Shown one piece after another: positions 37,739 through 64,000 of a stretch of DNA of 64,000 nt. Below the pieces are notes generated by a model. That model saw only the letters and a list, made by a program, of their open reading frames with translations. It was not told the DNA's origin and ran no database searches. The position numbers and the translations under genes are program-made. Source of the DNA: an uncultured delta proteobacterium (GTDB lineage: Bacteria > Desulfobacterota > Binatia > Binatales > Binataceae); the NCBI GenBank assembly GCA_963808235.1, contig CAWEEQ010000004.1, forward strand, positions 2,560,001 through 2,624,000, in the 5' to 3' direction. The stretch's first letter is position 1, and every line of letters starts with the position of its first letter.

Positions 37739-37802
37739 TTGATTCAAACAACAATACTATGATCGTGCGCTGATGACTCTTCGGTCATTAGCCACTTATC
37801 TT

Positions 37803-40160: not shown

Positions 40161-40202
40161 GCCAGGTGGTTGGCCGCTTGACTGACCGGCCTGCCACAAC
40201 GA

Positions 40203-41420: not shown

Positions 41421-41433
41421 GGCGAATTTCCAG

Positions 41434-42564: not shown

Positions 42565-42606
42565 TTTTGAAATTCGTGCGTCGATATCGTTTCCACTATG
42601 AATAGC

Positions 42607-44229: not shown

Positions 44230-44239
44230 TCTTTACGGC

Positions 44240-45430: not shown

Positions 45431-45463
45431 TACGCCTAGCTTTCGGATGCCTGTTGGTCACCC

Positions 45464-46810: not shown

Positions 46811-46864
46811 TCGCTACCGGTCCAAATAAGTGATTTCATCCCAGGCGGGTCCCGAGCCCGCGGC

Positions 46865-48028: not shown

Positions 48029-49320
48029 CAGGGTTTCCTGCCGGCCACGCGTTCGAAGATGGGAATCATCTGGGCGGCGAGGCGGCTGCGCGCAAATGAT
48101 TTTTCCGCCGATGCGCGGCCCGCCGCGCCCAGACTCGCGCGCTCCGATGGATCGCAGACGAGCCGTTCGATACATCTTGCAAGTCCCGCGCTGTCGCCGG
48201 GCTGATGCGTCAGCACGCCGCCGGATAGCTGTACGATCTCCGCCGCGCCTCCGGCTGCGCTTGCGATCACGGGTTTCCCGCACGCCATCGCTTCGATTAT
48301 CGCAAGTCCAAACGGTTCGGGTTCCGTGCTTGCATGCACCACGATATCGAGCGCGCGGATCGCGGAGGGTACGTCATCGACAAATCCTGTGAACCCTACT
48401 CGATCTGAAATTCCAAGCCGCGCGGCTGTCGCCCGCAACTCAGCCGCCGACAACTGGCTCCCGCGAGTCGGATAAATCGCGCCGCCGATCACGTAAGCCC
48501 TCACCCGCGAGCGCGAGCTGTCGCTCAAGCCGGCGATCGCGCGGAGGAACACCTCGTGACCCTTCCATCTCGCCATCGTAGCTACGAGTCCCACCCGAAC
48601 CGTGCCCTGAGGCGCTGAGAGCATCCCTGCCAGCGCGTCGAGGTCGAGCGCCGCACCGGCGGGCGCAAATTGATCGAGGTCAACCGCGTTGTAGACGGTA
48701 GTGGTCTCGATTCGATCCCCGCAGACTCTGCCGAACTCATCGCGCACGCTGTCGGAATTCGCGATTGCAGCGGCGCATCGGTTCGCTTGCATCCGCATCA
48801 GGCGCGACATCACCGGACGCGCGCCGACGTAATCGTGTATGTGCCAAATGACCGGCGTCTTGCGTCGAGCCGCCCACGCGCCGATCACGTGCATCTTGAA
48901 GCCGTTGGTGTGAATCAGCGTCGGCGCGAACTGTTCGATCGTTTGGGCGAGCATCTGTGTGTATCGATTGGTGGCGATTGCGGCGCCCAGCATGCTGGTA
49001 GCTATCGACAAACGCACCAGCGGCGCGCCCGCCGAACCGCGCATCGCGGAGTCTCCGATTCGCGCCAGCGATTGTGGCATCGGCAATACGGTCGCTGCGA
49101 TATTCATCGCGCGCGCACGGCGAACCAGTGGTCCGTCGCTGCCGGCTATCAGGCGTATCTCCCAATTCGGCCGCGCAGCCGCGACGCTTGCGATGATATC
49201 GATTAAGCTTCGCTCGGCGCCGCCGAACAGTCCCGACGGGTTAAGGAAAAGAATCCTCATCGGCGAAGCCAATCCGGCGCCTGCATCGGAGACACTGGCA
49301 AGCGGCGCAACCGCGCTCAC
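48028..49320 (-). CDS. Glycosyltransferase family 4
   Basis: GGAERSL, WKGHEVF, EPFGLAIIEAMACG. Confidence 0.92.
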   Translation of the reverse strand: MSAVAPLASVSDAGAGLASPMRILFLNPSGLFGGAERSLIDIIASVAAARPNWEIRLIAGSDGPLVRRARAMNIAATVLPMPQSLARIGDSAMRGSAGAPLVRLSIATSMLGAAIATNRYTQMLAQTIEQFAPTLIHTNGFKMHVIGAWAARRKTPVIWHIHDYVGARPVMSRLMRMQANRCAAAIANSDSVRDEFGRVCGDRIETTTVYNAVDLDQFAPAGAALDLDALAGMLSAPQGTVRVGLVATMARWKGHEVFLRAIAGLSDSSRSRVRAYVIGGAIYPTRGSQLSAAELRATAARLGISDRVGFTGFVDDVPSAIRALDIVVHASTEPEPFGLAIIEAMACGKPVIASAAGGAAEIVQLSGGVLTHQPGDSAGLARCIERLVCDPSERASLGAAGRASAEKSFARSRLAAQMIPIFERVAGRKP

Positions 49321-52166
49321 CGAACGACCTCGCTCGCGTCGGCGGCGGATGCGGCCTTCAGCTTGCGCTCGAACTCCGCCAGGTGATCGCGGTACCTCGA
49401 ATTGTCCGGTGACAGCGCCACGGCGCGCTTATAGGCCCGCTCGGCATTGTAATATTGGTAGCGATCCTCTTCGATGCTTCCGATTGCAAAGTAGGTCGAA
49501 GGCGAATTGGGTTCGACTTCTAGTGCACGGTTGAGCGTCAGGAGCGCGCGATCCGGCCTGCTATCGGCGGCATACAAATCGCCCAATTGTACCAGCAGCC
49601 GGCCCGAATTCGGTTCGATTTTGAGCGCCTGCTCCATCGCGTCTTCGGCCGCATGGCGGTCGCCGGCGACCAGGTCCGCGTTGGCGAGTGCTTCAGTCAG
49701 CTCGAACGAGTCGGCGCCGTTCTCGATTCCGAGATCGATCACGCGGCGCGCGCCGTCCACGTCGTGCCGCGGTCCATAGACCATCACCGCCATGTCCGCA
49801 TAGATGCTTGAATCGTCGGGTGCCGAATCGCTGGCCTCCTGAAACGTGACGAGCGCGGTCCCCAACGCGCCGGCGCGGGCGAAGGCTTCCCCGGATTTCT
49901 GCAGGTACTTCGCACGCATCGCCGGATCATCCTGGAGGCGCGCCGCGCGCTCGAATGCGTGCGCCTCGTCACTGAACTGCCCGACGGTCTCATAGTATTC
50001 GCCGAGAGTTTCGGGCGCATGGTCGTAGCCACGGTCCACCGCTTCGTTGAGTCCTTCTTCGACCGCCTTTTTCAGCTCCGGCGGCAGCCACGCGATCAAT
50101 CGCGGCACCAGGTAGCGATGCTCCTGGAACCTGGGGTAATTGAGCACCGACGCCTTGACCTGCGCGAACGCGTCGGCATTCCGCTTGTCGCCGACCAGCG
50201 TCTGCGCATACAAATCGCGAGTGTTTGGATCGAGCGGGCTCAGCCAGACCGATCTCCTGAATTCAGCGTCCAGAACGTCCGGCGGCATCGTGTCTGCATC
50301 GAGCTTGATCAGCGCCAGGTGCGGAAACACGTCGGCTGGGTAGGTGACCAGCAGAGCGCGCGCCTGGGTCAGATCGACCGGTTGGGTAAGATTGTAGGGA
50401 AAAACTGTCGCGTCCTGCGTCAATGCGGCGCCTACCAGGACCAGCACCACCATCGCGACGGCGACCGCTCGCGCGCGAATTGCCCACGGCCGCGCGGCGA
50501 CCTCTTGAGCTGGACCCGTCGTCGTCAGCCGCACCAGCAATCCGGCGAAAACCGAAAACAGAAGTGCTATCGCCGGGATGCGCAGGTCGAAGTCGAAGAT
50601 TTCGACCACGCAGGCCGCCGCGATTCCGGCGATGATCGCCGCGAAGATTGGACCCGCCGATGCTTCCATCGTGCGCGCTCCCGAAATGACCCTTCGGACG
50701 ATCCGGACCGCCAGCCATGCGAACAGCGCGATACCGATGATTCCGGTTTCGGCGAGCAATTGCAGGTAGTCGTTGTGCGCCTCGGAGAAGAACAGCAATT
50801 GCCACGGCGGTAGCTGGTAGCGCTCGAAGATCTCCGGCCATCCGCCAAGCCCAACTCCGAAGATCGGGAAGTCCCGGATGAGCGAGAGGCCTCCCTTCCA
50901 CGCCGAGATTCGTCCGACGATAGTCCCCATTTCGGTCGCAGACTCATTGACCCGGCTGACCGTATCAACCCGCGCTTCGGGTCCGATAAAGATCATCGAG
51001 GCGCCGAGCAGGATCACGATACCAACGATTGCGAGGCGAACGCCGCCGAATCTCGCCAAGCCCGACGAATGCTCGTCGTTCCTTTGGCCGCGCGGCGCCG
51101 CCAGCAGGCACATCACGATCGTGCCCAGGATCAGGGCAAGCCATCCGCCCCGCGACAGGCTCAGCAGGATCGCAAGGAAGATCACGAAACTGGCGACCCC
51201 GCACTGAATCCTGAATGCCAGCGTCGCGCGGCGCGGCGAAAGCAAATTCGGAAACGCAGCACACGCCAGCGCAAGCGGAAAGACCATCGCAAGATATCCA
51301 GCAAAGTGATCGGGATCGATAAAAGGCCCGCGCGCGCGCAGCACCGGCTCAAACAGCGGCGCGCGCCAGTCATATGGAATGAAAAACCACAGCATCTTTC
51401 CATTCCAGGTCGCGCGCTCGATCAAGCCAACGAAAGCAACCGCGAATCCGGTCAGCAGGATCACCCGGAGCGAAACCCGGATGAACTTGAGCGTCGATTC
51501 CGCGTCGTCGCCGTAAGCGAGCGGATAAAAAGCAGTCACCAGGAACGCGCAGGCGCACGACAAAAGCGCGAGCAAACTCGATAGCGTCAGCAATGGCGCC
51601 AGTGCCAGCGGGCGCCAGCGTCCGCCGTAAATTTGCGTCGCCAGCGTCGAGACAGGGGAGGCCGTTTGACCAGTCGATACCCTGGCCGCCTTTGCGCCAG
51701 GCGGTAGGAACGGGATCGGAACGCCCTTTTTTACTTCGTCGAGGCTGGGCAGAATCACCGGCGCGGAGGCAGCGGCGGGATTTGTAGCTGGCGCTTTCCT
51801 ATTCGCCGCGAAGTTGTCGTAGGGACGCGAAGCGGGCCATCCCTCGAGCGCGTGCGAGTACACTTCGAAGGTGCTCGGCGACAGCGCGCGCACGACCGAA
51901 GGCGGAAGCGGAGTTATCTGGAAAATGACAAATGCGGCGAAGACAACGAACGGGATCGCAATCGTTCGCGCATTCGACTCGTCCTCACCGGCCGTCGATC
52001 CGGATCCCGCCAGCGCCGCCACCTTGACCATCCATAAGATCCCTAGTCCGAACAGCGCCGCTTCAAGGGGCCGATACGCCCACGGATGAACGCTGCCGAA
52101 GGCGAAGGGGCTGAGCACGATCAGAGTCAGCAACGCACCGACGACAAATTGATCGATCTTTCGCAA
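49317..52166 (-). CDS. O-antigen ligase family protein with C-terminal TPRs
   Basis: RGPF..PDHFAGYL, SLSRGG, R...W......P.FGVG.G, AHNDYLQ...ETG; TPR repeats. Confidence 0.88.
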   Translation of the reverse strand: MRKIDQFVVGALLTLIVLSPFAFGSVHPWAYRPLEAALFGLGILWMVKVAALAGSGSTAGEDESNARTIAIPFVVFAAFVIFQITPLPPSVVRALSPSTFEVYSHALEGWPASRPYDNFAANRKAPATNPAAASAPVILPSLDEVKKGVPIPFLPPGAKAARVSTGQTASPVSTLATQIYGGRWRPLALAPLLTLSSLLALLSCACAFLVTAFYPLAYGDDAESTLKFIRVSLRVILLTGFAVAFVGLIERATWNGKMLWFFIPYDWRAPLFEPVLRARGPFIDPDHFAGYLAMVFPLALACAAFPNLLSPRRATLAFRIQCGVASFVIFLAILLSLSRGGWLALILGTIVMCLLAAPRGQRNDEHSSGLARFGGVRLAIVGIVILLGASMIFIGPEARVDTVSRVNESATEMGTIVGRISAWKGGLSLIRDFPIFGVGLGGWPEIFERYQLPPWQLLFFSEAHNDYLQLLAETGIIGIALFAWLAVRIVRRVISGARTMEASAGPIFAAIIAGIAAACVVEIFDFDLRIPAIALLFSVFAGLLVRLTTTGPAQEVAARPWAIRARAVAVAMVVLVLVGAALTQDATVFPYNLTQPVDLTQARALLVTYPADVFPHLALIKLDADTMPPDVLDAEFRRSVWLSPLDPNTRDLYAQTLVGDKRNADAFAQVKASVLNYPRFQEHRYLVPRLIAWLPPELKKAVEEGLNEAVDRGYDHAPETLGEYYETVGQFSDEAHAFERAARLQDDPAMRAKYLQKSGEAFARAGALGTALVTFQEASDSAPDDSSIYADMAVMVYGPRHDVDGARRVIDLGIENGADSFELTEALANADLVAGDRHAAEDAMEQALKIEPNSGRLLVQLGDLYAADSRPDRALLTLNRALEVEPNSPSTYFAIGSIEEDRYQYYNAERAYKRAVALSPDNSRYRDHLAEFERKLKAASAADASEVVR

Positions 52167-52253
52167 TACTCACCTTGCTCGTTTCGGAGTCGGAACGAGA
52201 ACCGTCGGGAGCTGATACGATCGCGGGCGCAATCGCTCCGGCGGCGCGCCGCC

Positions 52254-54617
52254 CTAGATCTTGTCGCTCGGACCTTCGTCAGCCTCGTACGATTCCGCGG
52301 CGTCCGGAGCGTAAGGACCGTAGGTGTCGTATCCACCGTAGTAGCGGCGATAGTACTGATAGTGCTGGCTGTTGACGTCGACCTGGTTGAGCAGGACGCC
52401 GAAGACTTTGGCCCGCGCGAACTCGAGCCGCGCATAGGCCGCCTTAACGTGCTGCTTGGAGGTTTTCGAGGAGTTCACCACCAGCACCACGCCGTCGACC
52501 ATCGTCGATAGCAGCATCGCGTCGGTCACCGGCAAAATAGGCGGCGAATCGATCACCACAACGTCGAACTCGCTGGTGAGCTGCGCCAGCGTGTCGCGCA
52601 TCTTGTCCGAGCCCACCAGTTCCGACGGATTCGGAGGTATCGAGCCCGCGCTGAGGAACGACAGACTGTCGATATCGGTGCTGCGGATCAGGTCGCTCAC
52701 GTTGCACGCGCCCGCCAGCACCTCGGTCAAGCCGGCCTGATTCTCGAGCGCGAGAACCTTGTGGCATCGCGGCCGTCTCAGATCAACGTCGATCAGCAAG
52801 ACCCGCACGCCCGTATGCGCGAACACCACGGCCGTGTTCAGCGCGCTGACGGTCTTCCCTTCGGAGTTCGACGCGCTGGTAAAGAGTATCGTCTTGGGCG
52901 GAGCGCCGGCCCGCGACAGCATCAATGCGGTGCGCAGCGATCGATACGCTTCGCCAACGACCGAGTACTGGTTCATCGAGCCCGCAAGCTCGCGACTACT
53001 CGCGAGCGTCGGCACGCGGTCGTTTCCGTTGCGCTTGGCCAGCGCCCGCGTTTCCTGCCGCGTGAATGCCGGCACTGCGGCCAGGTTGGGCAGCCTCAGG
53101 TATTGCTCGACTTGTTCAGGTGTCTTGAGCGTCTTGTCCTGGTATTCAATCAGGAAGGCAAGACCAATTCCGAGCGCCAGTCCGAACGCGATCGCTTGTA
53201 GGAGCGACATCGTGCGATGCGGTCCCGAGGGCCCACCCGGCACAGACGCATCGTCGACGACCACGGTATTCGACGATTGGCTCTCGGCCGCCAGGCCGAG
53301 ATCCTTTATTCGCTGCAGGACGGCGTTGTAAAGCTCGCGGTTGGTATCCACCTCGCGCTGAAGGATCGCGTATCCGACGGAAGCATCGTTAACGCTGAGC
53401 GCTTGCGACCGCTGGCGGCCCATCTCCTCCTGGAGGTCCGCTTCCTTGGTTTTGGCGGCATTGAAGGAGGCGATGACGCTCGCGGAGTAAGCCTTAAGCT
53501 CCTGGTTGTAGGTCTCCTGGAGCTGATCGATGCGCGCCTTGGCACGGACCATCGGCGGATAGTCGGGCTTGAATTGCTTCGCCATCGCGACGTAATCGCT
53601 CATCGCGGTATCGAGTTGCGTTTTGACCGACGGCGTCGAGGAACCGGAGTTGGAATTGCCGCTGGAGGGAAGCTCCGGTACCTGATTCTTGCGAATCTGA
53701 TCGACCTCCGCTTCGAGCCCGATCCGCGCGACCTGCGCGTTGGTGAGTTCCCTGCTCAAATCCGAGAGGCGCGCGATGACCACCGTTTCCTTGCCGTCAA
53801 CCGACATAAGGCCCGGCACGATTCCCTTGTCGCGGCGATAATTGTTCAGCGCCAGTTCCGATTTCTCGAGCTTCTCTTTCAGCTCCACCAGCTTGTCGCG
53901 CAGAAACCGCTCGGCTTCCGCGTTGGCCTGCGTGCGCAGCTCGATCCCTTCGCGGATGTACGCATGCGCGTGCGCGTTGGCGAGCCGTGCCGACAGGAGC
54001 GCATTCGGAGTCGTGAAAACTATCTTCACCAGGTTGGTATCGGGGATCGGCCTGATCTCCAGAGAACCCAGGTAGCTGCCGACCGCGTTGTCGACCGAAG
54101 TCGCACTCGCCGGCGCCGGTTTCGCCACCGCCGCCTTTGACCCGAACCAGCTCGCGAAAAATCCTCTGCTCGGCTTTCTACTCTTGCCGAGAAATAACGG
54201 GTCGGTTGCGAGGCCCTCCGCCGTGACCACGTTGGTGGCCAGCGTGCGGCTCTTCAGGATTTCGCATTGCGTCTTGAGAAAGTCTTCGACCGAATCCCAA
54301 TCGTTGCCCCCGGTCGAAGCGTCACCCTGCGCTCCCTGGTGACCTTCGAGGAGCTGCGGGTTACCCGGCTTCAGTAGAATCGTCGAATCCGCAGTGTAGA
54401 GCGGCGTCATCATCGACACCCGGATCGCAACGATTACCAGCGCCGCGAGCGTGATCGACACGATCATCCAGCGATGCTTCTTTACGGTGATCCAGTAGCT
54501 CAGCAGGTCGAGCGATCGCTCGTCTTCTTCGTGCAGTTTCCCGCCGAACGAGCCGTCCATGACTTCAGTGTCGATCGGTTGCGCGCGCCGGATGAAATAT
54601 GGCGATGGTTGGGTCAT
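52254..54617 (-). CDS. wzc: Wzc/GumC polysaccharide co-polymerase tyrosine autokinase
   Basis: EAYRSLRT, SEGKT, DVDLRRP, IDSPP, C-terminal Tyr cluster. Confidence 0.93.
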   Translation of the reverse strand: MTQPSPYFIRRAQPIDTEVMDGSFGGKLHEEDERSLDLLSYWITVKKHRWMIVSITLAALVIVAIRVSMMTPLYTADSTILLKPGNPQLLEGHQGAQGDASTGGNDWDSVEDFLKTQCEILKSRTLATNVVTAEGLATDPLFLGKSRKPSRGFFASWFGSKAAVAKPAPASATSVDNAVGSYLGSLEIRPIPDTNLVKIVFTTPNALLSARLANAHAHAYIREGIELRTQANAEAERFLRDKLVELKEKLEKSELALNNYRRDKGIVPGLMSVDGKETVVIARLSDLSRELTNAQVARIGLEAEVDQIRKNQVPELPSSGNSNSGSSTPSVKTQLDTAMSDYVAMAKQFKPDYPPMVRAKARIDQLQETYNQELKAYSASVIASFNAAKTKEADLQEEMGRQRSQALSVNDASVGYAILQREVDTNRELYNAVLQRIKDLGLAAESQSSNTVVVDDASVPGGPSGPHRTMSLLQAIAFGLALGIGLAFLIEYQDKTLKTPEQVEQYLRLPNLAAVPAFTRQETRALAKRNGNDRVPTLASSRELAGSMNQYSVVGEAYRSLRTALMLSRAGAPPKTILFTSASNSEGKTVSALNTAVVFAHTGVRVLLIDVDLRRPRCHKVLALENQAGLTEVLAGACNVSDLIRSTDIDSLSFLSAGSIPPNPSELVGSDKMRDTLAQLTSEFDVVVIDSPPILPVTDAMLLSTMVDGVVLVVNSSKTSKQHVKAAYARLEFARAKVFGVLLNQVDVNSQHYQYYRRYYGGYDTYGPYAPDAAESYEADEGPSDKI

Positions 54618-54632
54618 TTTACTCTTTTCGTC

Positions 54633-55919
54633 TCAGAAGGTCGGCAGCGGTACCGCCATGCGTGTCAGGATGTTATAAACCACGTACGGACCTATCCTGA
54701 GGTCCGAATACGGTACATCGATTACATCGTTGGCGCGAACCGGGATGTCCGGGTCGGCGCCGGTCGCAATCTTGTCCAGGTTCACCGGGATCGACACCTT
54801 GTTGCCGGCCGCGTCGCTGCGAATCAGCGTCGCCGCAGAAGGCGCAGCCGCATACATCGCTCCTCCCGCCGACCCCACCGCGCCCAATACCGTCAGACCC
54901 GAACCAACCTGGAAGAATCCGGGCTTGTATACCCATCCCGTCACCATCACGTTGCCGCCGCCGGGAACGATCAGCACGTCGCCCGGCCGTACCGGCATGT
55001 TGATGTAGCGAGCGCTGCCGTTGAGCGCGCTGCTCTTGAGCGGGATCACGATCGCCGGCCCGTTGCTGATATTCGTCTGCAGGGAGGCCATCGTCAGTTC
55101 CGTTTTATCTGGACCCGAATGGTCGGGCTGCGCATTCTGCGGGATGTCGGCCTCGGCCACCTTGTGCTGCGGTTCGTTTTCTTCGCTTAGCGAGGCGGCC
55201 AAACGCGCGAGCTGCTTTTGCCCGCCCTTCACCTCGGGAAGAATCACAATCTCGTCGGCCGCTTCCGCGGTCATTCCGCCCGCCTGTGTGATCGCATCGA
55301 GAATCGATACGTCAGAGCTCGTCAACGTGATCAGACCCGGCGTGCGCACCGCGCCCACCACCGCGACCTGCCGGCTGCGATATTCCCGGATAAAAACGTC
55401 GACCTGCGGACTATACATGTACTTGGTGAGCGCCGTTTTCAGCTCGTCGGAAAGTTGCGGCTCGGTCAGGCCGCCGGCCTGTATGTTCCCGATAAGCGGC
55501 AGCTCGATCTTTCCGTCGCCGCCCACTCGAACCGTGCGCTCTTTCAAATCTTCCACGCCCGGAACCGTGATTTCGATCACGTCTCCAGGGCCGATTGGAT
55601 AGTCCAGACTTTCACGCGCCTGCGATCTCTTTTCGAAGAGCGCCTTTAGCCGGTCCTGATTCGCCTGGGAGTTTGCGGCGCTCGGCACCCGCGGATCGGC
55701 AGCCAAACCAGGCGACGGCGGCGATTCCGATCCGAGTGCAGGTTGCGCTGCTGGTGCAGCCGCGGGCGCAGCGTCGGGTGCGGGCGCGGCAGTTTCCGCC
55801 GTTGGCGCGGAATCCGGCGCAGGCTCGGGTTGCGATGACGAGCACGCGACCAGCGATGTAGCTACGATCGCCGCGATGCCCACCGTTCTAAAACGAAATC
55901 CTGTTGTCGTCCGTCTCAT
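54633..55919 (-). CDS. wza: Polysaccharide export lipoprotein (Wza-like, SLBB domains)
   Basis: Lipobox LVAC, Y.IGPGD, DG.I.LPLIG...AGGLT, VVGAV..PG, AGG. Confidence 0.9.
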   Translation of the reverse strand: MRRTTTGFRFRTVGIAAIVATSLVACSSSQPEPAPDSAPTAETAAPAPDAAPAAAPAAQPALGSESPPSPGLAADPRVPSAANSQANQDRLKALFEKRSQARESLDYPIGPGDVIEITVPGVEDLKERTVRVGGDGKIELPLIGNIQAGGLTEPQLSDELKTALTKYMYSPQVDVFIREYRSRQVAVVGAVRTPGLITLTSSDVSILDAITQAGGMTAEAADEIVILPEVKGGQKQLARLAASLSEENEPQHKVAEADIPQNAQPDHSGPDKTELTMASLQTNISNGPAIVIPLKSSALNGSARYINMPVRPGDVLIVPGGGNVMVTGWVYKPGFFQVGSGLTVLGAVGSAGGAMYAAAPSAATLIRSDAAGNKVSIPVNLDKIATGADPDIPVRANDVIDVPYSDLRIGPYVVYNILTRMAVPLPTF

Positions 55920-55961
55920 ACGCAAATTCAAAGGAAAAAATCCATCGGAGTTTGTTTCTGC

Positions 55962-56393
55962 CTAATTCTTGTTGGCTCCCGATCCATTGCCGGAGCTGCC
56001 CGTATTTGTCCGCACCGGCGAGATTTTGGCCGCTGACGCACTCGTCGCCGAGTTATCAACAGCCGTACCCAGCGTCGCGACTGCGACCGGCGGTGCATGC
56101 TGCGTAAACCCCCAATTCACCGTCAGCCCCTGGTCTCCGATGTACGACATCACCCACTGACCCATCGCGCCGAGCTTGTATATCCCCGGTTTCAGATTCG
56201 AAATCGCATACGCGCCGTTGGCGTCGGAGACCGCTTTTCCCGCCTCGAGGTTCGCCGAGTTCTCGACAAAAACGGTGACGCCGGATACCGGCTGGCCGCG
56301 ATTATTTAACATCCTGCCCACCAGCTCGGCGCACGATGCCGGCGTATTGCCGATCAGTACGAGCAACGTCAGCACGACAATCCACGACGCCAT
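55962..56393 (-). CDS. Small exported carboxypeptidase-regulatory-like domain protein
   Basis: RBS GGGAG, signal peptide, G.PVSGVTV...SDANG.Y.I.NL.PG.Y. Confidence 0.75.
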   Translation of the reverse strand: MASWIVVLTLLVLIGNTPASCAELVGRMLNNRGQPVSGVTVFVENSANLEAGKAVSDANGAYAISNLKPGIYKLGAMGQWVMSYIGDQGLTVNWGFTQHAPPVAVATLGTAVDNSATSASAAKISPVRTNTGSSGNGSGANKN

Positions 56394-56642
56394 CGATACT
56401 CCCGCGATGTTTTCCGTTCTCGTCGTATGTTTCCCCAGGTAGCTGATATCGGCGGGCATGCGTCCGCCATCCCTTAGGACCCTTTTGTTGGCATCTCTAA
56501 GCTTTAACGGGCGCGCTTTGCGCACTTCCCCCGTGATCACTGCCGTCGTCCTTTCGCTTGCCCGATTGGACGATAAACTACGGCCAGGCCGAATCACGAA
56601 TCCTCGACCACACGCCGAACAATCCGATACAAATCACGGCCT

Positions 56643-56659
56643 TGCGTCGATCGTGCCGA
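56643..56659 (-). promoter_or_regulatory. Possible sigma54 (-24/-12) promoter for the EPS operon
   Basis: TCGGCACGATCGACGCA = GG-N10-GC with GGCACG core. Confidence 0.3.
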
Positions 56660-57201
56660 TACAACGCCGATGATGTCCATGAGCCCGAGAGCTTGCGATC
56701 TTCTTCTCAACGAAATTCGTCCAGCCCGTGAATTGTTACATCGGATTCGGAGTTCGAGGATCCGCGCCGCTGCCGTTTGACACCGTGAAAAGTGAACAGT
56801 GAAAAAGTAAAAAAAGCGCGCGATTATTTCTAGAGCCCTCCACCCGGCGACGCTAATGGGAGTCTAGTCATCGGCAGCCGCAAACACAAGCTAGCGTAAA
56901 CATCAACAAACTACATTGGCCTTATTGAAACGGCTGTTACCTTGCGTTTCCGCAGGCTATTTCTGCCATGGATTGTCTTGCTCCCGCAGCCGAAATATTT
57001 TCTGATGCGGATTGAATCGCAAACATCTCGATCTCGGCTCGCGGTGCATCTGGTTCGCGCCGCACCCGATCATCGCCCCCTTCAAACCGGATCCATTTGA
57101 TGTGTACAGTGAACGTGAAACGTGACGAGTGAAAAAGCGGGGATCGGCGCAAAGTCTGATACTTGTTGACTCGTCGTTAGCGAATTCGAGAGAGCATTGC
57201 C

Positions 57202-57447
57202 TTGACTCCAGATATTGAGCATCGCGTCCGCAAGACAATCATCCGCACCTTCAACCTGTCGGCCGAAGATGGAACCGGAGAGCTCCGCATGGGCAGTTTG
57301 CCCGGATGGGACTCGCTCGGACACATGCGCCTGGTCGTGGAACTGGAAGAGGAGTTCGGAGTAAGTTTCCCCACCTACCTCCTGCCCGAAATTCTCGACG
57401 TCGATTCGATCGTTCGCGAAACTCTGAAGCTTCAAGCGGAGCAATAG
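57202..57447 (+). CDS. Acyl/aminoacyl carrier protein
   Basis: WDSLGHMRLV.ELEEEFGV phosphopantetheine-attachment motif. Confidence 0.9.
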   Translation: MTPDIEHRVRKTIIRTFNLSAEDGTGELRMGSLPGWDSLGHMRLVVELEEEFGVSFPTYLLPEILDVDSIVRETLKLQAEQ

Positions 57448-57461
57448 GGCGTCCCGGTTCA

Positions 57462-58646
57462 ATGACTCATTCGGTGCGGCTCGAACGAGACATTCCGGCT
57501 GACCTGGTCGAGGAGTTTCTCAAGAAACTGTCCTACATATCCGAGTCGCTATCCACCTATGATCTCGATCCGGCAGCGCGCGACAACGTCAGCTTCGAGC
57601 TTCGCCCTGGACATGACGCGCAATCGGAGTTGGTATCCAGTCGAATCCGCGAAGTCGCTGACAAGCTATGCAAGGGCCGCCGCCAGCCGAAGATTAAACT
57701 GCTAGTCAGTCGCAAGGATCGAGATATCTCGTTCAGCGCGGATCCTCATCCTCTGCTCGAGTCGATGGATGAGATTCGCAAGTACGGCGAAGGCCGCTTC
57801 GGCTTCGGTCCGCGGCTGGTCGAACTGATGAATCTGTTCGACCGCGACGTGTGCGCGATCGCCGATCGGATGCGCGCGGTTCCGCATCAGTTTCCGACTC
57901 TGATTGGCGCCGACGTTATGGACCGATGCCGCTATCTGCGCTCATTTCCCTCAGCGCTGACAATGGTTTCGCATCTGCGCGAGGACTTGGGCGCCATCCA
58001 GGACTTCGCAAACATCGCGGCGTGGGATGGCGAGAAGTTGGTCTGCGATCCGGCCACCTTGAGCACTATCCAATGCCTGCTCGCACCTTCGATATGCTTC
58101 CACTACTACGCGTGGCTGCAAAACCGCACCATCGATACGACAGTCGTCACCGCGATCGGAAAATGCTTCCGCTTCGAATCGAAGAGCATGGCCGGCCTGG
58201 AACGATTGTGGGACTTCACGATGCGTGAAGTGATATTCGCGGGGCCCGGCAAGTACGTACTCGACCAGAGACAAAGAGTAGTCGACGAAAGCGTCGCACT
58301 ACTCGACAAGTGGGAATTGGCCTACGAAATCAAAAGCGCGACCGACCCGTTTTTTATCGAAGACTACGCCGCGATGACCGCGTTTCAGTTGGCGTTCGAG
58401 TTGAAGTTCGAAATCCTCGCGCCGCTCCCCTACAAGCATAAGGACCTCGCGATCGGCTCCTTCAACTATCACCAGGATTTCTTCGGCCGCTCGTTCGCCA
58501 TCTCGGGGCAAAACAAAGAGCCCGTCCACACCAGTTGCGTCGGCTTCGGCCTCGAACGCGTCGCGCTGGCATTCCTTGCGCAACATGGCCTCAATCCGAA
58601 GCTATGGCCCGCCGCAATCGCAAATCAGATCCATAGCGCGTGGTAG
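57462..58646 (+). CDS. Amino acid--[carrier protein] ligase (class II aaRS / atypical SerRS homolog)
   Basis: LAPSICFHYY, CFRFE, R.WDFTMRE, ATDPFF, KFE, SFNYHQDFFG, HTSCVGFGLER; adjacent carrier protein. Confidence 0.85.
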   Translation: MTHSVRLERDIPADLVEEFLKKLSYISESLSTYDLDPAARDNVSFELRPGHDAQSELVSSRIREVADKLCKGRRQPKIKLLVSRKDRDISFSADPHPLLESMDEIRKYGEGRFGFGPRLVELMNLFDRDVCAIADRMRAVPHQFPTLIGADVMDRCRYLRSFPSALTMVSHLREDLGAIQDFANIAAWDGEKLVCDPATLSTIQCLLAPSICFHYYAWLQNRTIDTTVVTAIGKCFRFESKSMAGLERLWDFTMREVIFAGPGKYVLDQRQRVVDESVALLDKWELAYEIKSATDPFFIEDYAAMTAFQLAFELKFEILAPLPYKHKDLAIGSFNYHQDFFGRSFAISGQNKEPVHTSCVGFGLERVALAFLAQHGLNPKLWPAAIANQIHSAW

Positions 58647-58647
58647 C

Positions 58648-59148
58648 ATGATGGCAGATGATTCGACCGATACCAGCGTAGTCATTCGCGCCGCAAAGCC
58701 GGCCGACATCTATACAGTGGAGCCGCTTTGGATCGCCCTCTACAAGCACCAGAAGGACCACGGGATGCTGCTGGACTTGTCCGCATCGTCGTTCACTCAA
58801 TGGGCCGAAGCGATGAAGCCGGCGCTCGGACGTTTCACTTGTCTGTTCATTGCCGAGCACAGCGGAGGACCGATTGGATTTCTGGCCGGCAACCTTAAGA
58901 CCCTTCCTCCGTATTTCGGAGGCCACTTGATCGGTTTCGTAAGTGAAGTGTTCGTTGCCGATGCGCACCGCGGTAAGCAGGTCGGCCGCGATCTGGTCGA
59001 TACCGCGCTCCGATGGTTCAAGGCTCAGCGCGCGCATCGCGTCGAGCTGCAGGTGGTGATGAATAACTCGGGCGCTCGAAAGCTCTACAACAAGCTCGGC
59101 TGGAGCGAGGAGCTAGTTCAGATGGTCTGGAATTGGCCCGCGAAGTAG
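58648..59148 (+). CDS. GNAT family N-acetyltransferase
   Basis: VFV...HRGKQVGR.L acetyl-CoA motif, N..ARKLY.KLGW. Confidence 0.9.
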   Translation: MMADDSTDTSVVIRAAKPADIYTVEPLWIALYKHQKDHGMLLDLSASSFTQWAEAMKPALGRFTCLFIAEHSGGPIGFLAGNLKTLPPYFGGHLIGFVSEVFVADAHRGKQVGRDLVDTALRWFKAQRAHRVELQVVMNNSGARKLYNKLGWSEELVQMVWNWPAK

Positions 59149-60291
59149 CACATCCGTAATCTTGTTAGCCACGTACCAGCATAGGCATACGAAGACGTAG
59201 GTCCCCGCCGCACCCGCAATCTCCCGCATTCGATGTGAACCGATCGAATCCGCAAACGCGAAGCGCTCCTTGTGCGATCGATACCACACATAAACACAGA
59301 ACCCGATCCCATGCAGGATTCCCCACGTCGCCCAGTACAGGTTCATCCCGTGCCACAAGCCTACCGCGATAAATACCATCACCAGGTTGAAGTACGCATT
59401 TGCTTTCTTGAGTCCCCATCGATTGTAAAACAGGTAGTCGGTGCATATCCGGGTGACGGTCATGTTCCACCGCGCCCAGAAATCTCTTAGGTTCACTTGC
59501 CCGAATGGATAGTTGAAACTCGGCAATAATTTGATTCCCCAGAACAACGCCAGGCATTCCATAAGATGAAAGCCGCCGCTGGTGCTCAAGTAGAAACCCC
59601 ACGGACCGGTAACAAAAATTATGAACAGCTTCGGCCAGCGCGGCCCCGGATGATCTAACCCGACGGTTACTCGATTCAGGCCGGCGCCAATGATCATTTG
59701 TACGATCGCCAACGAAAGCTTTAGCCACCACTCTCGATTCACAACTTCAGTAGCCGTTCGCTTCGACTCGGCATTGCCGTATTGCGGAAAAAACTCGCTC
59801 GGGCGAATAAGCGGTCCAAGCAGCGTGAATGGAAACGTGATCCAGATCACGTAGTCGATAAAATCGAGCTTCTTCAAACGCCCCGATCCGAATTCCCACA
59901 AGAACGATATAGTTCGCAGCAGCAGCCACATGTCGTGGTCGGGCAGCGTCCATAAAACTCCAAATGCATGCACACTGAAGCGGTCCAGTAGATGCACGCT
60001 GCCGGCAAAGAAAATTGCGATCACCGCAATCATCGTGGCGCATGCGTACGTCCACCGCCGCTTCCCGAGTTTCGCCTCGAGAGGCGTGATCCTTTCGAGG
60101 AACCGCGCAAAACCGAACAGCAACAGTATCCAGAGCAGGTAGCCGAAGAACTGATTCCGATAAACGACAGTAGCGACTATCAAGCTGAGCGCTAGATAGC
60201 CATATCGGCGGCGAAGCAATGGCAGGCATATGACAGCCACTGCGCTTGCAATGACGGCGACTAGCGAGTACTCGGCTGCGATGAGCATCAT
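59113..60291 (-). CDS. MBOAT family O-acyltransferase (DltB/AlgI-like)
   Basis: FPFTLLGPL.R, FNYPF...NLRDFWARWNMT, GLWHG, WGILHG. Confidence 0.9.
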   Translation of the reverse strand: MMLIAAEYSLVAVIASAVAVICLPLLRRRYGYLALSLIVATVVYRNQFFGYLLWILLLFGFARFLERITPLEAKLGKRRWTYACATMIAVIAIFFAGSVHLLDRFSVHAFGVLWTLPDHDMWLLLRTISFLWEFGSGRLKKLDFIDYVIWITFPFTLLGPLIRPSEFFPQYGNAESKRTATEVVNREWWLKLSLAIVQMIIGAGLNRVTVGLDHPGPRWPKLFIIFVTGPWGFYLSTSGGFHLMECLALFWGIKLLPSFNYPFGQVNLRDFWARWNMTVTRICTDYLFYNRWGLKKANAYFNLVMVFIAVGLWHGMNLYWATWGILHGIGFCVYVWYRSHKERFAFADSIGSHRMREIAGAAGTYVFVCLCWYVANKITDVLLRGPIPDHLN

Positions 60292-60360: not shown

Positions 60361-61542
60361 GTGAAGCGAGTAGCCCTAGTCTACGGGGCGCCTGCGGGAG
60401 TCGGTGGCCTTGGCGGTCAAGCTGCGAGCGCAATCCAGGCTTTGGCGATCGATGGCGTGGAACTCCATGCATTCGGCCCCGGCCACGCCGAGCGTTGGCC
60501 TCTCACCTGCGCTACACCTGGTATTTTCTGGCACGAAGCCCCCCGCCCGATTTCGCGCTGGAGAACGCAGTACACCCTGCTGCGATGGCGCCAGGGGCGG
60601 TTGGTATTCGAAAATAGTCGCGCGCTCGGACGCTGGGCGGCCGAGCAAATCGCGCGCCTCAAGCCGGATTGCTGCTACGTTTTCACACAAGTCGGCCTCG
60701 AGTCACTGAAGTGGGCCGCGCGCGCCTCGATTCCGACCGTGCTCGACAATCCGAATGGACATATCCGGAACTTCCGCCGGGTCTATGACCAGGAGTCCGC
60801 GCGATGGTGCGGCGCGTCATTTCATGGACACCCGACTGCGGCGATGGTCGAGCGGGTCGAGAATGAATACCTACTCGCCGGACGGATCCGCGTTTCCTCG
60901 CAATGGGCGAAGCGTTCGATGCTGTCTCATGGTGTGGCCGGCAAGGAGATCGGCGTGTTCGGCCAGCCAGTCGATCTGACCCGATACGCGCCGAACGCAA
61001 CCCCGGCGCAAGCCGAAGGCAGGCTCCGGGTCTGTTATGTGGGCGCTCTGGATCTCCGCAAAGGCTTCGTCTACCTCCTGCGCGCCGCAAAGATGCTCGG
61101 GGCGGATGCTATCGACCTGGAGATCGTCGGAGCAACCGGGGACCGCGCGAGCCGCATACTATTCGAGCACGAATCCGCCGGCGTTAACTTGCGGTGTGCT
61201 CCGGGCGATCCGATCCCGGCGTATCAGCGCGCCGAGCTGTTTGTATTGCCAACCCTCGAGGACGGTTTCGGCTTCGTCGTCGCGGAAGCAATGGCAAGCG
61301 GCCTGCCCGTCGTCGTGACCGACTGTTGCGGCGCGGCGGAGTGGGTGCGGCCGGGCGAGACCGGCTGGGTGGTGCCCGGCGGAGACGCCGAAGCATTGGC
61401 GGGGGCCTTCCGGGACGCGATACGTCGGCGCAAAGATCTTCGTGCGATGGGTCGGCGCGCTCGCTACGACGCGGAGAATCGCGGCGGCCTTCATTGTTCC
61501 GTTGCGCTGCGCCAATGGGTCTTCGGGGAAGCCCGGCACTGA
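60361..61542 (+). CDS. Glycosyltransferase family 4
   Basis: VGAL..RKG, EDGFGFVVAEAMASGLPV. Confidence 0.92.
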   Translation: MKRVALVYGAPAGVGGLGGQAASAIQALAIDGVELHAFGPGHAERWPLTCATPGIFWHEAPRPISRWRTQYTLLRWRQGRLVFENSRALGRWAAEQIARLKPDCCYVFTQVGLESLKWAARASIPTVLDNPNGHIRNFRRVYDQESARWCGASFHGHPTAAMVERVENEYLLAGRIRVSSQWAKRSMLSHGVAGKEIGVFGQPVDLTRYAPNATPAQAEGRLRVCYVGALDLRKGFVYLLRAAKMLGADAIDLEIVGATGDRASRILFEHESAGVNLRCAPGDPIPAYQRAELFVLPTLEDGFGFVVAEAMASGLPVVVTDCCGAAEWVRPGETGWVVPGGDAEALAGAFRDAIRRRKDLRAMGRRARYDAENRGGLHCSVALRQWVFGEARH

Positions 61543-61557
61543 GCCGGCGATTTCGCG

Positions 61558-62289
61558 ATGCCAACGCCAGCGTGGAAAAAGCTCGCGCGCATCGTCGCGT
61601 GGCCGCTGAGGTCGGGATGGCCCGACGAAGCGCGATGGGTAGTTCAGGGTCCGATATTCGGTCGCCTGATCAATAGCGCAACCCTCGGCGCGCCGCGCGG
61701 TTTGACGATTCTCAATGCAGGCGCCGGCGAAGGATCGTTTTCCCCGTTGCTGCTTGCGATCCCGGGCGCGGCGCATGTGGTCGAGATGGACTATTCATAC
61801 CGAACCGGTCCGCGCAGTGTCTCTGATACCCGCCAGCACGTGGTGGCCGCGTCGCTGACCAACATTCCGATCAAGTCCGCGTCTTTCGACTTCGTCTTGT
61901 GCAGCGAAGTCCTGGAGCACATCGACGACGACGCCTCGGCTCTCGATGAACTTTGCCGCGTGGTGGCTCCGGGCGGATGGCTGCTGATTTCTGTGCCTAC
62001 GCCGCCGGCGGTTTACGATCCCGACCATGCGCGCGAGGGTTACGCTGCGGCCGATCTGACCCGGATGCTGCGCGACCGCGGACTCGGCGTGGTCGAGGTC
62101 GCCTATTGCATGCACGGCGCTTTCAAACTGGTACTTCGCGGATGGCGCCGGTTCGGCCGTCTGCCGCGAGCTCTCTTGCTTGGCCTCGCGACCTTCGACC
62201 GGTTCTGCCGCATCGGCGCCCCCATGGACCTAATCGTGCTCTCGCGGCTTCCCAGCGGCGATGATCCACGACCCCTCACGAGTCAATAG
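61558..62289 (+). CDS. Class I SAM-dependent methyltransferase
   Basis: LNAGAGEG, FDFVLCSEVLEHI.DD, PGG.LLISVP. Confidence 0.9.
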   Translation: MPTPAWKKLARIVAWPLRSGWPDEARWVVQGPIFGRLINSATLGAPRGLTILNAGAGEGSFSPLLLAIPGAAHVVEMDYSYRTGPRSVSDTRQHVVAASLTNIPIKSASFDFVLCSEVLEHIDDDASALDELCRVVAPGGWLLISVPTPPAVYDPDHAREGYAAADLTRMLRDRGLGVVEVAYCMHGAFKLVLRGWRRFGRLPRALLLGLATFDRFCRIGAPMDLIVLSRLPSGDDPRPLTSQ

Positions 62290-64000
62290 CCTTCCACGAT
62301 TACCCAGCCCGTTTTCGTCGCGCTCATCGAGGCCGGTAGGGTCAGCGCCGTTGTCGAGGCGGTCGAGCCACCCGAGTCGTCGGCGGTGATCTTCGGCACG
62401 TTCGCGAATGCGATGGGATAGGTGATCGTCTGTGCTGTCGCGGTCGTGTTCTCATACCCGTTAAGAAAGACCACGACCTTCTTCACACTCGAGTCCATCG
62501 CCGGCTGGGACCATACCGCTGTCCCCGCCGTCGTTCCGTTGAGCGTCGTCTGGGTGCGGGTGCTGCCGCCAATCACCTGATATGGAACTCCCGCGCTGGT
62601 AAAGCTATTGCCGGATGGCGGCGTGGTAAGGTGAGCCTCGAAGGTCACGTTATCGAAAACCACCGCGCCGAAGATCGGCGGCGTACCGGTCAGGTTCGTG
62701 CCGTCAACGTAAGGGCCGGTGCCCGATACGTGCGTCATCTCGCCGTTGTGAATGCCAATTCCGCCAAGGATCTGACCGTCAAGCGTGATCACCGGGGCGT
62801 TGAAAGAGGCAAGCGAGCTATTCGACACTGACAGCCACGGCCCGGTAGGTTGGAGCATGTTCGGCACTTCGACAACTGTGAAGGTGCCGCCATTCTCGGA
62901 ATCGATCGAAGTCGAATCGACGTGCAGCCAACCAGGATCGATAATCGCCCACTTGGTGCTCGACGGGGTCAGAAAATATGAACCGCTGACGAGCGGGCCG
63001 TTGGTCTCGATACACGCACTGCCACAGGTGAAATTCAGATTGTAGAGCGGAGTCAGGCCGCCGTTTACCGACATGGCAATGGCAGCTCCGGGAGCTCCCG
63101 GGCCGCCGAACAGATTTCGCCCCGAGCCGCCGTAGTCGTTGATCTGATCGAGCATCAGACCGTATTGCGCGCCGTTAAAGCCGATGTTCTCCAGTTGCGG
63201 CGCGGTTACGTTGGCAATCAGGTTGAAGCTGCCGCCCGAGATCGTCAGGTCCTTGATATGCGGCTGATTGCCGCCCGCGTTACCCAGCCCGAAATTTCGC
63301 ATCATCATCCACGGCTGATCTTGCGCCGTCGACGCGAGGTTGCCACCGGCCAGGAAATATCCTTCCGGACTTACCAACGGCAGGCTGGTGTTACTCCAGT
63401 TTTCAAGCAGGACCGTGTTTGCATCGTTTGCCAGCTTCGAATTTGGCGCCGTGCAGCCACCAGAGTCGTTGGTGCATCGAGCGGAGTTGCTGAGTCGGAC
63501 CGAGTCCATCTTGCCCTGAAAATTCTCCTGCGGAACCAGCAGATGCCAATATTCCACGTCAGAGCCAAGCACCAGGTCCTCATCGACGCGCTGTGACACC
63601 GTGCCAGTCATCGCAATCTTGCCGTCTGAAGTGAGTGCCGCTCCGGGGATGGCGTGGTAGAACCGGGCATTGGAGCCGTCGTAGGAGAGTTGATAGTAGT
63701 AAGTCGTGTTCGCTGATAGTGCGGCGGCAGTCTTGAACGTGCTCGCGCCGACCCATCCCGTAGTGCTGGTATGAAAACGCGCTTTCAGCTTGCTGTCAGC
63801 GCCATCCCAGAACACTTCAAACGCACCCTTGCAACTTGGTGGACTTGCGCCGTCGCTCGGAAACTGACTGCATCCCGTCGCGACCGGCGCCACCGCTCCC
63901 AGGCTGCCGATCAGCATCTGCGTCGCACCAGCGTTCGTCGTCGTGAAGAAGCCCTCCGCCGTGAACGCTGCAAGACCGTTCAACGCGCGATTACCCAGCG
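62283..64000 (-). CDS. Large LamG-like + beta-helix-like protein (5' end outside window)
   Basis: Frame open to the window edge; LSYDGS...F.G.MDSVRLSN.AR (LamG), Gly/Asn/Ser-rich beta-helix-like middle, tail-fibre-like C-terminus. Confidence 0.7.
   Translation of the reverse strand, partial: LGNRALNGLAAFTAEGFFTTTNAGATQMLIGSLGAVAPVATGCSQFPSDGASPPSCKGAFEVFWDGADSKLKARFHTSTTGWVGASTFKTAAALSANTTYYYQLSYDGSNARFYHAIPGAALTSDGKIAMTGTVSQRVDEDLVLGSDVEYWHLLVPQENFQGKMDSVRLSNSARCTNDSGGCTAPNSKLANDANTVLLENWSNTSLPLVSPEGYFLAGGNLASTAQDQPWMMMRNFGLGNAGGNQPHIKDLTISGGSFNLIANVTAPQLENIGFNGAQYGLMLDQINDYGGSGRNLFGGPGAPGAAIAMSVNGGLTPLYNLNFTCGSACIETNGPLVSGSYFLTPSSTKWAIIDPGWLHVDSTSIDSENGGTFTVVEVPNMLQPTGPWLSVSNSSLASFNAPVITLDGQILGGIGIHNGEMTHVSGTGPYVDGTNLTGTPPIFGAVVFDNVTFEAHLTTPPSGNSFTSAGVPYQVIGGSTRTQTTLNGTTAGTAVWSQPAMDSSVKKVVVFLNGYENTTATAQTITYPIAFANVPKITADDSGGSTASTTALTLPASMSATKTGWVIVEGY

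Follow-up and report, generated by a model that had tools for sequence, protein, structure and literature searches.

In Gram-positive bacteria, teichoic acids are D-alanylated by the Dlt pathway, which consists of DltA, DltC, DltB, DltX and DltD. Aminoacyl groups are also passed from a small carrier protein (CP) to a sugar in the synthesis of the butirosin side chain, with BtrI as CP and BtrH as acyltransferase, and by AlmEFG, which attaches glycine to the lipid A of Vibrio cholerae; in these two systems the loaders are ATP-grasp or ANL enzymes, the transferases are soluble or of the LpxL type, and no MBOAT takes part. A further kind of loading enzyme, the amino acid:CP ligases, has been known since 2010 and is represented by several crystal structures (e.g., PDB 3mey and 4h2s), its members Bll0957, Bll6282 and Atu2573 reportedly having been described by Mocibob et al. 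in that year. Their role is called unknown in a passage of a 2022 review (PMC9437257), and in a note added in proof, Aravind and co-workers predicted in 2010 that the system of the Atu2573 type joins an amino acid to an amino sugar of the cell surface (PMC2922099). Here we report on a 64,000-nt stretch of DNA, referred to as the window, from a soil bacterium with a Candidatus Binatus-like genome that is 93% complete. In this stretch the genes for a CP, an aminoacyl-tRNA synthetase (aaRS)-like ligase, a GNAT and a short MBOAT form a cassette which, on balance, is probably a portable module for the aminoacylation of an envelope glycan, Dlt-like in its principle but equipped with a different loading enzyme.

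As in the Dlt pathway, a small CP is proposed here to be loaded with an amino acid in the cytoplasm, and the short MBOAT, for which DltB is the nearest family as well as the nearest solved structure, carries no fused shuttle motif; a DltX-like micro open reading frame (micro-ORF) and a membrane-anchored SGNH protein are further points of likeness, but these are confined to related clades of the ligase. In contrast to Dlt, the loader is a paralog of class II aaRS of the SerRS type and not the ANL-family DltA, a GNAT is added, the hosts belong to diderm or uncultured phyla, and the acceptor would presumably be a Wzx/Wzy polysaccharide instead of teichoic acid; moreover, the variant in the window is devoid of DltX and DltD, and the DltC-docking helix region of its MBOAT is shortened. 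With the MBOAT-SGNH pairs of polysaccharide O-acetylation (PatA/PatB, AlgI/AlgJ/AlgX and WssH) the cassette shares the MBOAT fold with its catalytic His and the location in a polysaccharide locus, whereas its MBOAT differs from theirs by the absence of both a fused FxYxxF motif and an SGNH neighbour and by its linkage to a CP, those systems using acetyl-CoA. MBOATs of the PatA/PatB or AlgI/AlgJ type are characterised by two additional helices together with the C-terminal FxYxxF motif. A 2025 paper on the MBOAT-SGNH systems describes the non-Dlt pathways, in the part of its text that bears on this point, as operating without a carrier protein and a DltX-like microprotein (PMC12148441). Because of the 2010 prediction for the Atu2573-type system the idea of glycan aminoacylation is not new; the connection of these ligases with MBOAT, DltX-like and SGNH proteins appears to be, since a literature search, with subscription journals mostly outside its coverage, returned no paper in which an aaRS-like ligase is connected with an MBOAT or with a Dlt-like system.

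The four proteins of the cassette

The cassette extends from the start of the CP gene to the start of the MBOAT gene (57202-60291), and all four genes that a preliminary description of the window had placed there are present (Table 1), their families being confirmed by Pfam and NCBIfam. Pfam scans likewise agree with that description in the flanking wza/wzc and GT4 genes, and the convergent MBOAT and GNAT genes overlap by the 36 nt it had given (59113-59148).

The ligase matches the NCBIfam model NF005479 ('amino acid--[acyl-carrier-protein] ligase') with 161.4 bits (E 2.4e-47), the solved structure of Bll0957 (3mey) with E 7e-30, the methanogen-type SerRS structures 3w3s and 2cim with E 3e-21 and E 7.5e-12, respectively, and Pfam tRNA-synt_2b with E 2.5e-5. 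The Cys/Glu/Cys pattern noticed previously was found again: C212 (SIC), E256 (MRE) and C359 (TSC) correspond to a Cys, a Glu and a Cys in the sequence of Bll0957, and none of the three varies in an alignment of 18 related sequences. We take these three positions to be zinc ligands. The model of methanogen-type SerRS, NF002120, is also matched (E 2.6e-41), but at positions 159-506 of 518 only, and since nothing aligns to the N-terminal 158 positions of this model the ligase has no tRNA-binding domain, about 55 conserved family-specific residues standing in place of that part. To judge from its sequence, the ligase has a class II aaRS catalytic core of the methanogen-type SerRS lineage and is a paralog of the housekeeping SerRS, for which a canonical serS gene exists elsewhere in the genome (G000:C4:773511-774820). 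As a separate observation on this housekeeping gene, serS matches its model in three pieces lying in three different frames, which could be caused by frameshifts or by assembly indels.

With the ligases Bll0957, Bll6282 and Atu2573 the protein has in common the homologous catalytic core, the Cys/Glu/Cys positions, an adjacent dedicated CP and the lack of a tRNA-binding domain. It differs in its 394 aa as compared to the 318 positions of NF005479, i.e., in about 76 extra N-terminal residues, and in its neighbours, which are an MBOAT and a GNAT here and, in the passages of PMC2922099 devoted to them, a redox enzyme and an Atu2574-type ORF in the known ligases. It may be described as a relative of the NF005479 family that is best treated as a separate subfamily of about 394 aa. 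A word-indexed search for its relatives returned 1375 proteins at E ≤ 1e-5 among 7071 candidates; counted as representatives at 50% identity, the family comprises 381 clusters at E ≤ 1e-30, 1296 at ≤ 1e-10 and 1853 at ≤ 1e-3. It contains two fusion proteins, one of BtrH_N with the ligase (P0206), which is a point of likeness to the butirosin system, and one of the ligase with a GNAT domain (P0184), and these would connect the ligase family with acyl transfer that starts from carrier proteins.

The CP scores exactly at the gathering threshold of Pfam PP-binding (E 4.7e-4) and matches acyl carrier protein (ACP) models of NCBIfam with E 1.5e-6 and weaker. Within a GWDS motif lies its phosphopantetheine serine, S38, which does not vary among 22 relatives, and three phosphopantetheinyl transferases are encoded in the host genome. 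Hydrophobic residues are found at S+1 and S+4, the offsets of Met36 and Val39, which are among the DltC residues described as contacting DltB in the relevant part of PMC11035591. The stop codon of the CP gene lies 14 nt before the likely start of the ligase gene, a start at which the ligase attains the same length as its relatives.

Apart from Pfam MBOAT (E 6e-7), the MBOAT has DltB TIGR04091 (E 3.3e-19) as its sole NCBIfam match, and in the alignment with the DltB structure 6bug (E 2e-9) its H314, which is invariant in 22 relatives, coincides with the catalytic His of the WHG motif. An AlphaFold2 (AF2) model with a pLDDT of 87.9 is closest to DltB according to Foldseek (E 5e-9), and VIA-align superimposes 363-364 residues on DltB end to end (Z 29.9, root mean square deviation 3.4-3.5 A), the next matches being MBOAT7 (Z 24.8) and PORCN (Z 24.5). 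A search for the FxYxxF motif in this protein was negative. Both sequence and model thus suggest an MBOAT of the DltB kind with catalytic His, a length of about 400 aa and no fused shuttle motif. The only other MBOAT of the genome (C4:2197567-2198994) has 475 aa, ends in FIYFQF and is directly followed by a GDSL_2 SGNH gene; this pair (G000:C4:2197567-2200139) resides in another polysaccharide locus with an FkbH_N/GDSL protein nearby.

The GNAT, the gene of which starts one base after the ligase stop, is a small cytoplasmic protein that matches Pfam Acetyltransf_1 with E 1.5e-15. Its AF2 model (pLDDT 93) resembles GNATs with E 3e-11 in Foldseek, the best matches being polyamine, RimI and aminoglycoside (AAC) N-acetyltransferases. 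The pyrophosphate-binding motif (R/Q-x-x-G-x-G/A) is present; the family consensus reads R-G-x-G-I-G, and the protein of the window has Q at the fourth position.

Conserved neighbourhood and related clades

With one genome scanned per species, 158 stretches of DNA gave a match, 92 of which encode a relative of the ligase, and the best 80 were kept (L001-L080). Their ORFs were searched with the proteins of the window and then with hidden Markov models (HMMs) built from the matches together with Pfam-confirmed relatives. In these best 80 loci a CP is found within 5 kb of the ligase in 76 and directly adjacent to it in 73, an MBOAT within the same distance in 26, a small GNAT in 27 (with two additional ones, in L035 and L038, seen by Pfam only), and an SGNH-type protein of the kind present in L029 in five. 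With respect to the 24 closest loci (L001-L021, L032, L076 and L077), whose ligases are at least about 43% identical to that of the window, the MBOAT lies within 5 kb in 21 and the small GNAT in 19. The MBOAT is on the ligase strand in 18 of them, either upstream in an MBOAT-CP-ligase(-GNAT) array (15 loci: L002-L004, L006-L009, L013-L016, L019-L021 and L076) or downstream (L010, L012 and L018), and it is downstream and convergent, as in the window, in three others (L001, L011 and L017); the MBOAT ORFs of L019 and L020 are fragments. The three loci without an MBOAT are cut by contig ends, as L032 starts inside the ligase gene, the contig of L077 measures 1.55 kb, and that of L005 breaks off 2.0 kb past the ligase, within an AlgX-type SGNH gene of convergent orientation. 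The synteny of MBOAT and ligase, which the preliminary description had named as a check, is borne out by these counts. In L017, the sister of L005, an AlgX-type SGNH gene is followed by the MBOAT, which in this locus is of the long type (570 aa, ending in FIYFQY) and paired with the SGNH gene; here, and probably also in L005, the CP, ligase and GNAT genes are combined with an AlgX-type SGNH gene, a likeness to the MBOAT-SGNH pairs.

In a quick IQ-TREE reconstruction of the ligases (77 rows, LG+G4; L032, L076, L077 and L079 were omitted as short or broken) the window falls into a clade of 22 rows, termed clade A (SH-aLRT 100), and 21 of these rows have an MBOAT. The window and the Candidatus Binatus locus L001, whose ligase is 89% identical, nest among Acidobacteriota, and the synteny of MBOAT and ligase spans Acidobacteriota, Verrucomicrobiota and Binatota. 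In about 15 of the 22 clade-A loci, plus the window, genes of the glycosyltransferase (GT), Wzc, AT3 or sugar-nucleotide kind lie no farther than about 10 kb away. Clustering of the ORFs from the 24 closest loci yielded neither an SGNH protein nor an extra neighbour of general occurrence; recurrent extra neighbours were GT4, FkbM methyltransferase, epimerase/dehydratase, nucleotidyltransferase and AT3, and a 525-aa polytopic protein without a Pfam match is encoded in L008, L014 and L076. The short MBOATs of clade A share a conserved T-Y365-x-x-V-C369 motif (residues 364-369) in their last helix, some 25 residues before the C-terminal end. It was considered as a fused shuttle tyrosine, and the Arg/Lys-rich loop preceding it suggests a cytoplasmic position; the motif could be a carrier docking site, part of the tunnel or a fused shuttle tyrosine.

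Two further architectures are found in a ligase clade of 11 rows that groups near that of the window. One is represented by a Vicinamibacteraceae and two Rhodospirillaceae metagenome-assembled genomes (L029-L031), in which the order is CP, micro-ORF, a membrane-anchored SGNH protein of about 400 aa (with GDSL/ALGX matches), an MBOAT of about 410 aa, and ligase. The other occurs in Sphingopyxis (L035 and L038) with the order ligase, CP, GNAT, a 391-aa MBOAT, micro-ORF and a membrane-anchored SGNH-like protein of 361-367 aa, the assignment of the latter being tentative because its sole likeness to the SGNH proteins of L029-L031 is a weak match at the C-terminal D-x-x-H. Each of the micro-ORFs codes for one hydrophobic helix and a C-terminal hydrophobic-x-Y-x-x-F motif. 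FxYxxF is named the 'acyl shuttle' motif of DltX in the pertinent passage of PMC12148441, and a passage of PMC11035591 gives the motif of DltX as FLYFGF. Between L035 and L038 the micro-ORF differs by 19 changes at third positions as compared to 3 and 3 at the other positions, and by 16 synonymous versus 5 non-synonymous codon differences, and the start codons of the micro-ORFs overlap the upstream stop codon. This pattern indicates that the micro-ORFs are coding sequences, that purifying selection acts on them and that their translation is coupled to that of the adjacent genes; they have probably been unannotated so far. L029-L031 and L035/L038 would therefore seem to hold full Dlt-type sets with an aaRS-derived ligase in place of DltA, and the ligase family as a whole appears to be wired into acyl-export systems of the Dlt type.

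Proposed pathway and competing explanations

By homology, the ligase would activate a small amino acid with ATP and transfer it as a thioester onto the phosphopantetheine arm of the CP; by analogy with the known enzymes Gly, Ala or Ser is to be expected. The GNAT might then acetylate the free alpha-amine of the aminoacyl-CP with acetyl-CoA in the cytoplasm, a step that we infer with some reservation and regard as falling a little short of probable. The zinc site in this class of enzymes presumably binds the free alpha-amine of the substrate; if so, acetylation would have to follow loading, and N-acetylation of the aminoacyl-CP would be the simplest role for the GNAT. Alternatively, the GNAT may take the aminoacyl-CP as acyl donor for a cytoplasmic acceptor, a possibility kept alive by the fusions P0184 and P0206. 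A small GNAT of the same family is also present in the MBOAT-less Anaerolineales/Phycisphaerae loci L022-L028; the GNAT is therefore linked with the ligase-CP pair and not with the MBOAT. As suggested by synteny and the likeness to DltB, the MBOAT would dock the loaded CP at the cytoplasmic side and pass the (N-acetyl)aminoacyl group through the membrane via His314, and the genomic context points to the polysaccharide of the surrounding Wzx/Wzy locus as the place where this group might end as an ester. With no DltX or SGNH protein nearby, either the acceptor would receive the group from the MBOAT itself, in the manner of eukaryotic MBOATs, or a partner would be encoded elsewhere.

The Dlt-like interpretation given in the preliminary description is thus supported in part. 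Comparative genomics argues well for it with regard to the ligase-CP-MBOAT core, through synteny, the DltB-like fold and the related clades, while the amino acid, the GNAT step, the acceptor and the final transfer are what we infer from homology and context. A wider reading, to which we attach rather less than even weight, sees in the SerRS-derived ligases of about 394 aa general aminoacyl donors for surface glycans that serve at least four kinds of transferase: AAC(3)-like enzymes, BtrH-like enzymes, long GNATs, and DltB-like MBOATs that either have DltX/SGNH partners or do without them; the variant in the window would then be a minimal Dlt-like system whose short MBOAT alone moves an N-acetyl-aminoacyl group from the CP through the membrane and straight onto the polysaccharide.

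A number of observations weigh against a Dlt-like function of the cassette. The DltD family (PF04914) has no match in the 93%-complete genome, and no SGNH gene is present in the locus, including the approximately 11 kb past the window; in line with the earlier statement that a DltD/AlgJ-type partner is missing, none of the window ORFs scanned belongs to an SGNH, DltD or AlgJ family, and the nearest GDSL-like ORF lies about 18 kb away behind housekeeping genes. When the SGNH-type proteins of L029-L031 and L035 and the 525-aa protein were compared with the own genome by tblastn, nothing was obtained at E ≤ 1e-3. No AMP-binding family (DltA-type ANL) was detected among the window ORFs scanned either, the aaRS-like ligase standing in the place of DltA. 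A DltX-like micro-ORF is absent from the window and from the 22 clade-A loci, the sole motif matches in the clade being the tail of the long MBOAT of L017 and an irrelevant soluble ORF in L013. Both the ligase, with its 161.4 bits as compared to the curated cut-off of 357 for NF005479, and the MBOAT, with 69 bits as compared to 375 for TIGR04091, fall far short of the respective thresholds and should therefore be considered as relatives of these families but not as members in the sense of NCBI. In addition, the MBOAT has a gap of 7 residues relative to DltB in the stretch that forms the DltC-docking helix HC (the docking contacts are described in part of PMC11035591), so that docking of the carrier may differ from DltB, and, being encoded on the opposite strand, it does not share a transcript with the CP, ligase and GNAT. 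Sequence and fold searches with the GNAT returned only generic GNATs, its likeness to the fused or paired GNATs of other ligase clades being at superfamily level only (hhalign probability 53-82%), and four clade-A loci with flanks of 10 kb have no small GNAT adjoining the ligase, the one in L010 being 3.7 kb away and none being found within 5 kb in L011, L012 and L019. Finally, the module lies outside an evident glycan locus in L010, L012 and L018 (Verrucomicrobiota) and in L019.

As a separate observation on DltX-like proteins, the only such micro-ORF of the whole genome is a DUF5989 gene on another contig (G000:C1:201999-202148, i.e., L090:7999-8148). Its 49-aa product ends in FIYTLF, and it is situated between an SxtJ-family gene and a carbamoyltransferase gene in another glycan locus, where the microprotein may act as a shuttle for carbamoyl groups.

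The absence of an MBOAT from many ligase clades, in which other acyltransferases adjoin the CP and ligase, would agree with a different explanation: CP, ligase and GNAT could form a cytoplasmic pathway in which the GNAT uses the aminoacyl-CP as donor to place the amino acid in amide linkage on an amino sugar that belongs to a nucleotide- or lipid-linked precursor; the MBOAT would be a second outlet or an unrelated O-acyltransferase. In L022, L024, L025 and L027, a CP and ligase are accompanied by the small GNAT, an AAC(3)-type Antibiotic_NAT, a DUF4910/M28-like protein, a sulfotransferase and NeuB genes, the arrangement in L036 and L041 being similar, and L052, L053, L063, L064 and L072 show the order LbH-CP-ligase-GNAT with a hexapeptide transferase and a GNAT of 320-356 aa. 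The two fusion proteins, P0184 and P0206, fit such a pathway as well, as does the amide ligation to a surface sugar that is predicted for Atu2573-type ligases in the note of Aravind et al. 2010 (PMC2922099). However, inspection of the locus and of the following 11 kb revealed no gene for a DegT-type aminotransferase or for an amino-sugar pathway, the GNAT of the window shows no specific relationship to the fused or the long GNATs, and the MBOAT is kept in 21 of the 24 closest loci, usually directly upstream of the CP gene; for the window we therefore consider a pathway of this kind unlikely.

Two further explanations concern the MBOAT and the acceptor. That the MBOAT is an ordinary acetyl-CoA-dependent polysaccharide O-acetyltransferase which happens to lie beside an unrelated CP-ligase-GNAT unit would agree with its opposite orientation, with its shortened DltC-docking helix region and with the use of acyl-CoA by bacterial MBOATs other than DltB, as stated in a passage of PMC12148441. 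Yet it is very improbable in view of the mostly same-strand MBOAT-CP-ligase-GNAT synteny across Acidobacteriota, Verrucomicrobiota and Binatota and of DltB being the closest family and structure; moreover, the fused FxYxxF and the SGNH partner that define acetyl-CoA systems are both lacking here, whereas the other MBOAT of the genome has both. Aminoacylation might, in turn, be directed to a membrane lipid or lipoglycan of the lipid A or glycolipid type instead of the exopolysaccharide of the locus, since MBOATs often acylate lipids, the module occurs outside glycan loci in L010, L012, L018 and L019, in L010 and L012 with an apolipoprotein N-acyltransferase-like gene near it, and the lack of an encoded extracytoplasmic transferase would fit an acceptor with access to the active site from inside the membrane. 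The glycan-related genes around some 15 of the 22 clade-A modules and around that of the window, as well as the use of SGNH proteins by the related clades, as in polymer-acylating systems, speak against a lipid acceptor, which we hold to be quite unlikely though less so than an ordinary O-acetyltransferase. Taken over the whole family, glycan genes are the usual but not the universal context of the ligase.

Genomic setting, origin and significance

The surroundings of the cassette are a large polysaccharide locus of the Wzx/Wzy type that reaches from about 33.9 kb to the end of the window (Table 1), the first 24 kb of the window being occupied by housekeeping genes. According to Pfam scans, the part upstream of the cassette codes for an initiating transferase, a methyltransferase, GT4s, a GT9, a dehydratase/epimerase, two Wzy_C proteins, a flippase-like protein (weak match), Wzc, Wza and a CarboxypepD_reg protein. 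The locus continues for about 11 kb past the window with genes for a GT4, a methyltransferase, an RmlC-like epimerase, a dehydratase, a nucleotidyltransferase, a GT2 and a GT87. The intergenic region in front of the CP gene contains no ORF family, sigma-70 consensus or Rfam match. In the wider interval 55900-60500 the sole Rfam match was a sub-threshold CRISPR repeat (E 0.24), and between 56400 and 60500 no sigma-70 consensus was found and terminator-like sites were not above those in shuffled sequences.

Table 1. Position of the cassette, of its surroundings in the window and of the DltX-like micro-ORFs in related loci (loci are named where the coordinates are not those of the window)
Feature	Coordinates	Strand	Remarks
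CP	57202..57447	+	81 aa, TTG start; Pfam PP-binding
Amino acid:CP ligase	57462..58646 (likely ATG start)	+	394 aa; listed ORF 57306-58646
GNAT	58648..59148 (likely start)	+	166 aa; listed ORF 58576-59148
Short DltB-like MBOAT	59113..60291	-	392 aa; convergent with GNAT
Intergenic region 5' of CP gene	56598..57201		604 nt, G + C content 0.517; presumed promoter region
wza	54633-55931	-	Pfam scan
wzc	52254-54617	-	Pfam scan
GT4	60361-61542	+	Pfam scan
Upstream part of polysaccharide locus	33855..56597		Pfam scans
Downstream part of polysaccharide locus	60361..64000		GT4, methyltransferase, ConA-like protein; Pfam scans
DltX-like micro-ORFs	L029:2221-2349, L030:7415-7534, L031:7375-7494		39-42 aa, between CP and SGNH, end AYQQF
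DltX-like micro-ORFs	L035:13205-13315, L038:13205-13315		36 aa, between MBOAT and SGNH, end FVYGGF

Just upstream of the polysaccharide locus, genes for a PqqD-like protein (29922-30461) and an NTP_transf_5 protein (30573-31811) are found, and two FecR-domain genes are located at 25328-27143; these genes may constitute a peptide-maturation or regulatory unit.

The G + C content of the cassette is 0.560 as compared to 0.610 and 0.622 in the flanking parts of the locus, and at E ≤ 1e-30 the ligase is present in only one of 201 sampled genomes of the phylum, namely that of the window itself. Together with the placement in the tree, the lower G + C content and the rarity in the phylum suggest that the module was probably acquired horizontally. 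Independently of the window, transposase genes adjoin the module in the clade-A loci L006 (8217-9455) and L012 (5837-7351), as would fit a mobile cassette.

The host genome also harbours a second ligase paralog, 31% identical to the first (G000:C1:145432-146631, i.e., L093:7432-8631), in a cluster of the nonribosomal peptide synthetase type. Its neighbours are an A-PCP-C protein, a 3-hydroxyacyl-CoA dehydrogenase, a CP, a thioesterase, two acyl-CoA-dehydrogenase-like proteins, a MacB/HlyD exporter and an Sfp-type phosphopantetheinyl transferase. This cluster resembles what we take to be a cassette for an aminomalonyl- or hydroxymalonyl-CP extender unit, with the aaRS-like ligase as loader.

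With respect to the ligase family, the conserved association with MBOATs of the DltB kind, with DltX-like micro-ORFs and with SGNH proteins provides a concrete and testable pathway, and the loci described here would represent Dlt-type systems outside the Gram-positive bacteria that make use of a different loading enzyme. A route to experiments is offered by the cultured strain Sphingopyxis bauzanensis DSM 22271, which carries the six-gene version, whereas the variant in the window, without DltX and SGNH protein, raises the question of how a short MBOAT completes the transfer. If the window does encode a minimal system, this would amount to a new type of exopolysaccharide decoration as well as a new mechanism for a bacterial MBOAT. 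As aminoacyl decoration alters the charge and stability of surface polymers, it could matter for the soil biofilms of Acidobacteriota, Verrucomicrobiota and Binatia.

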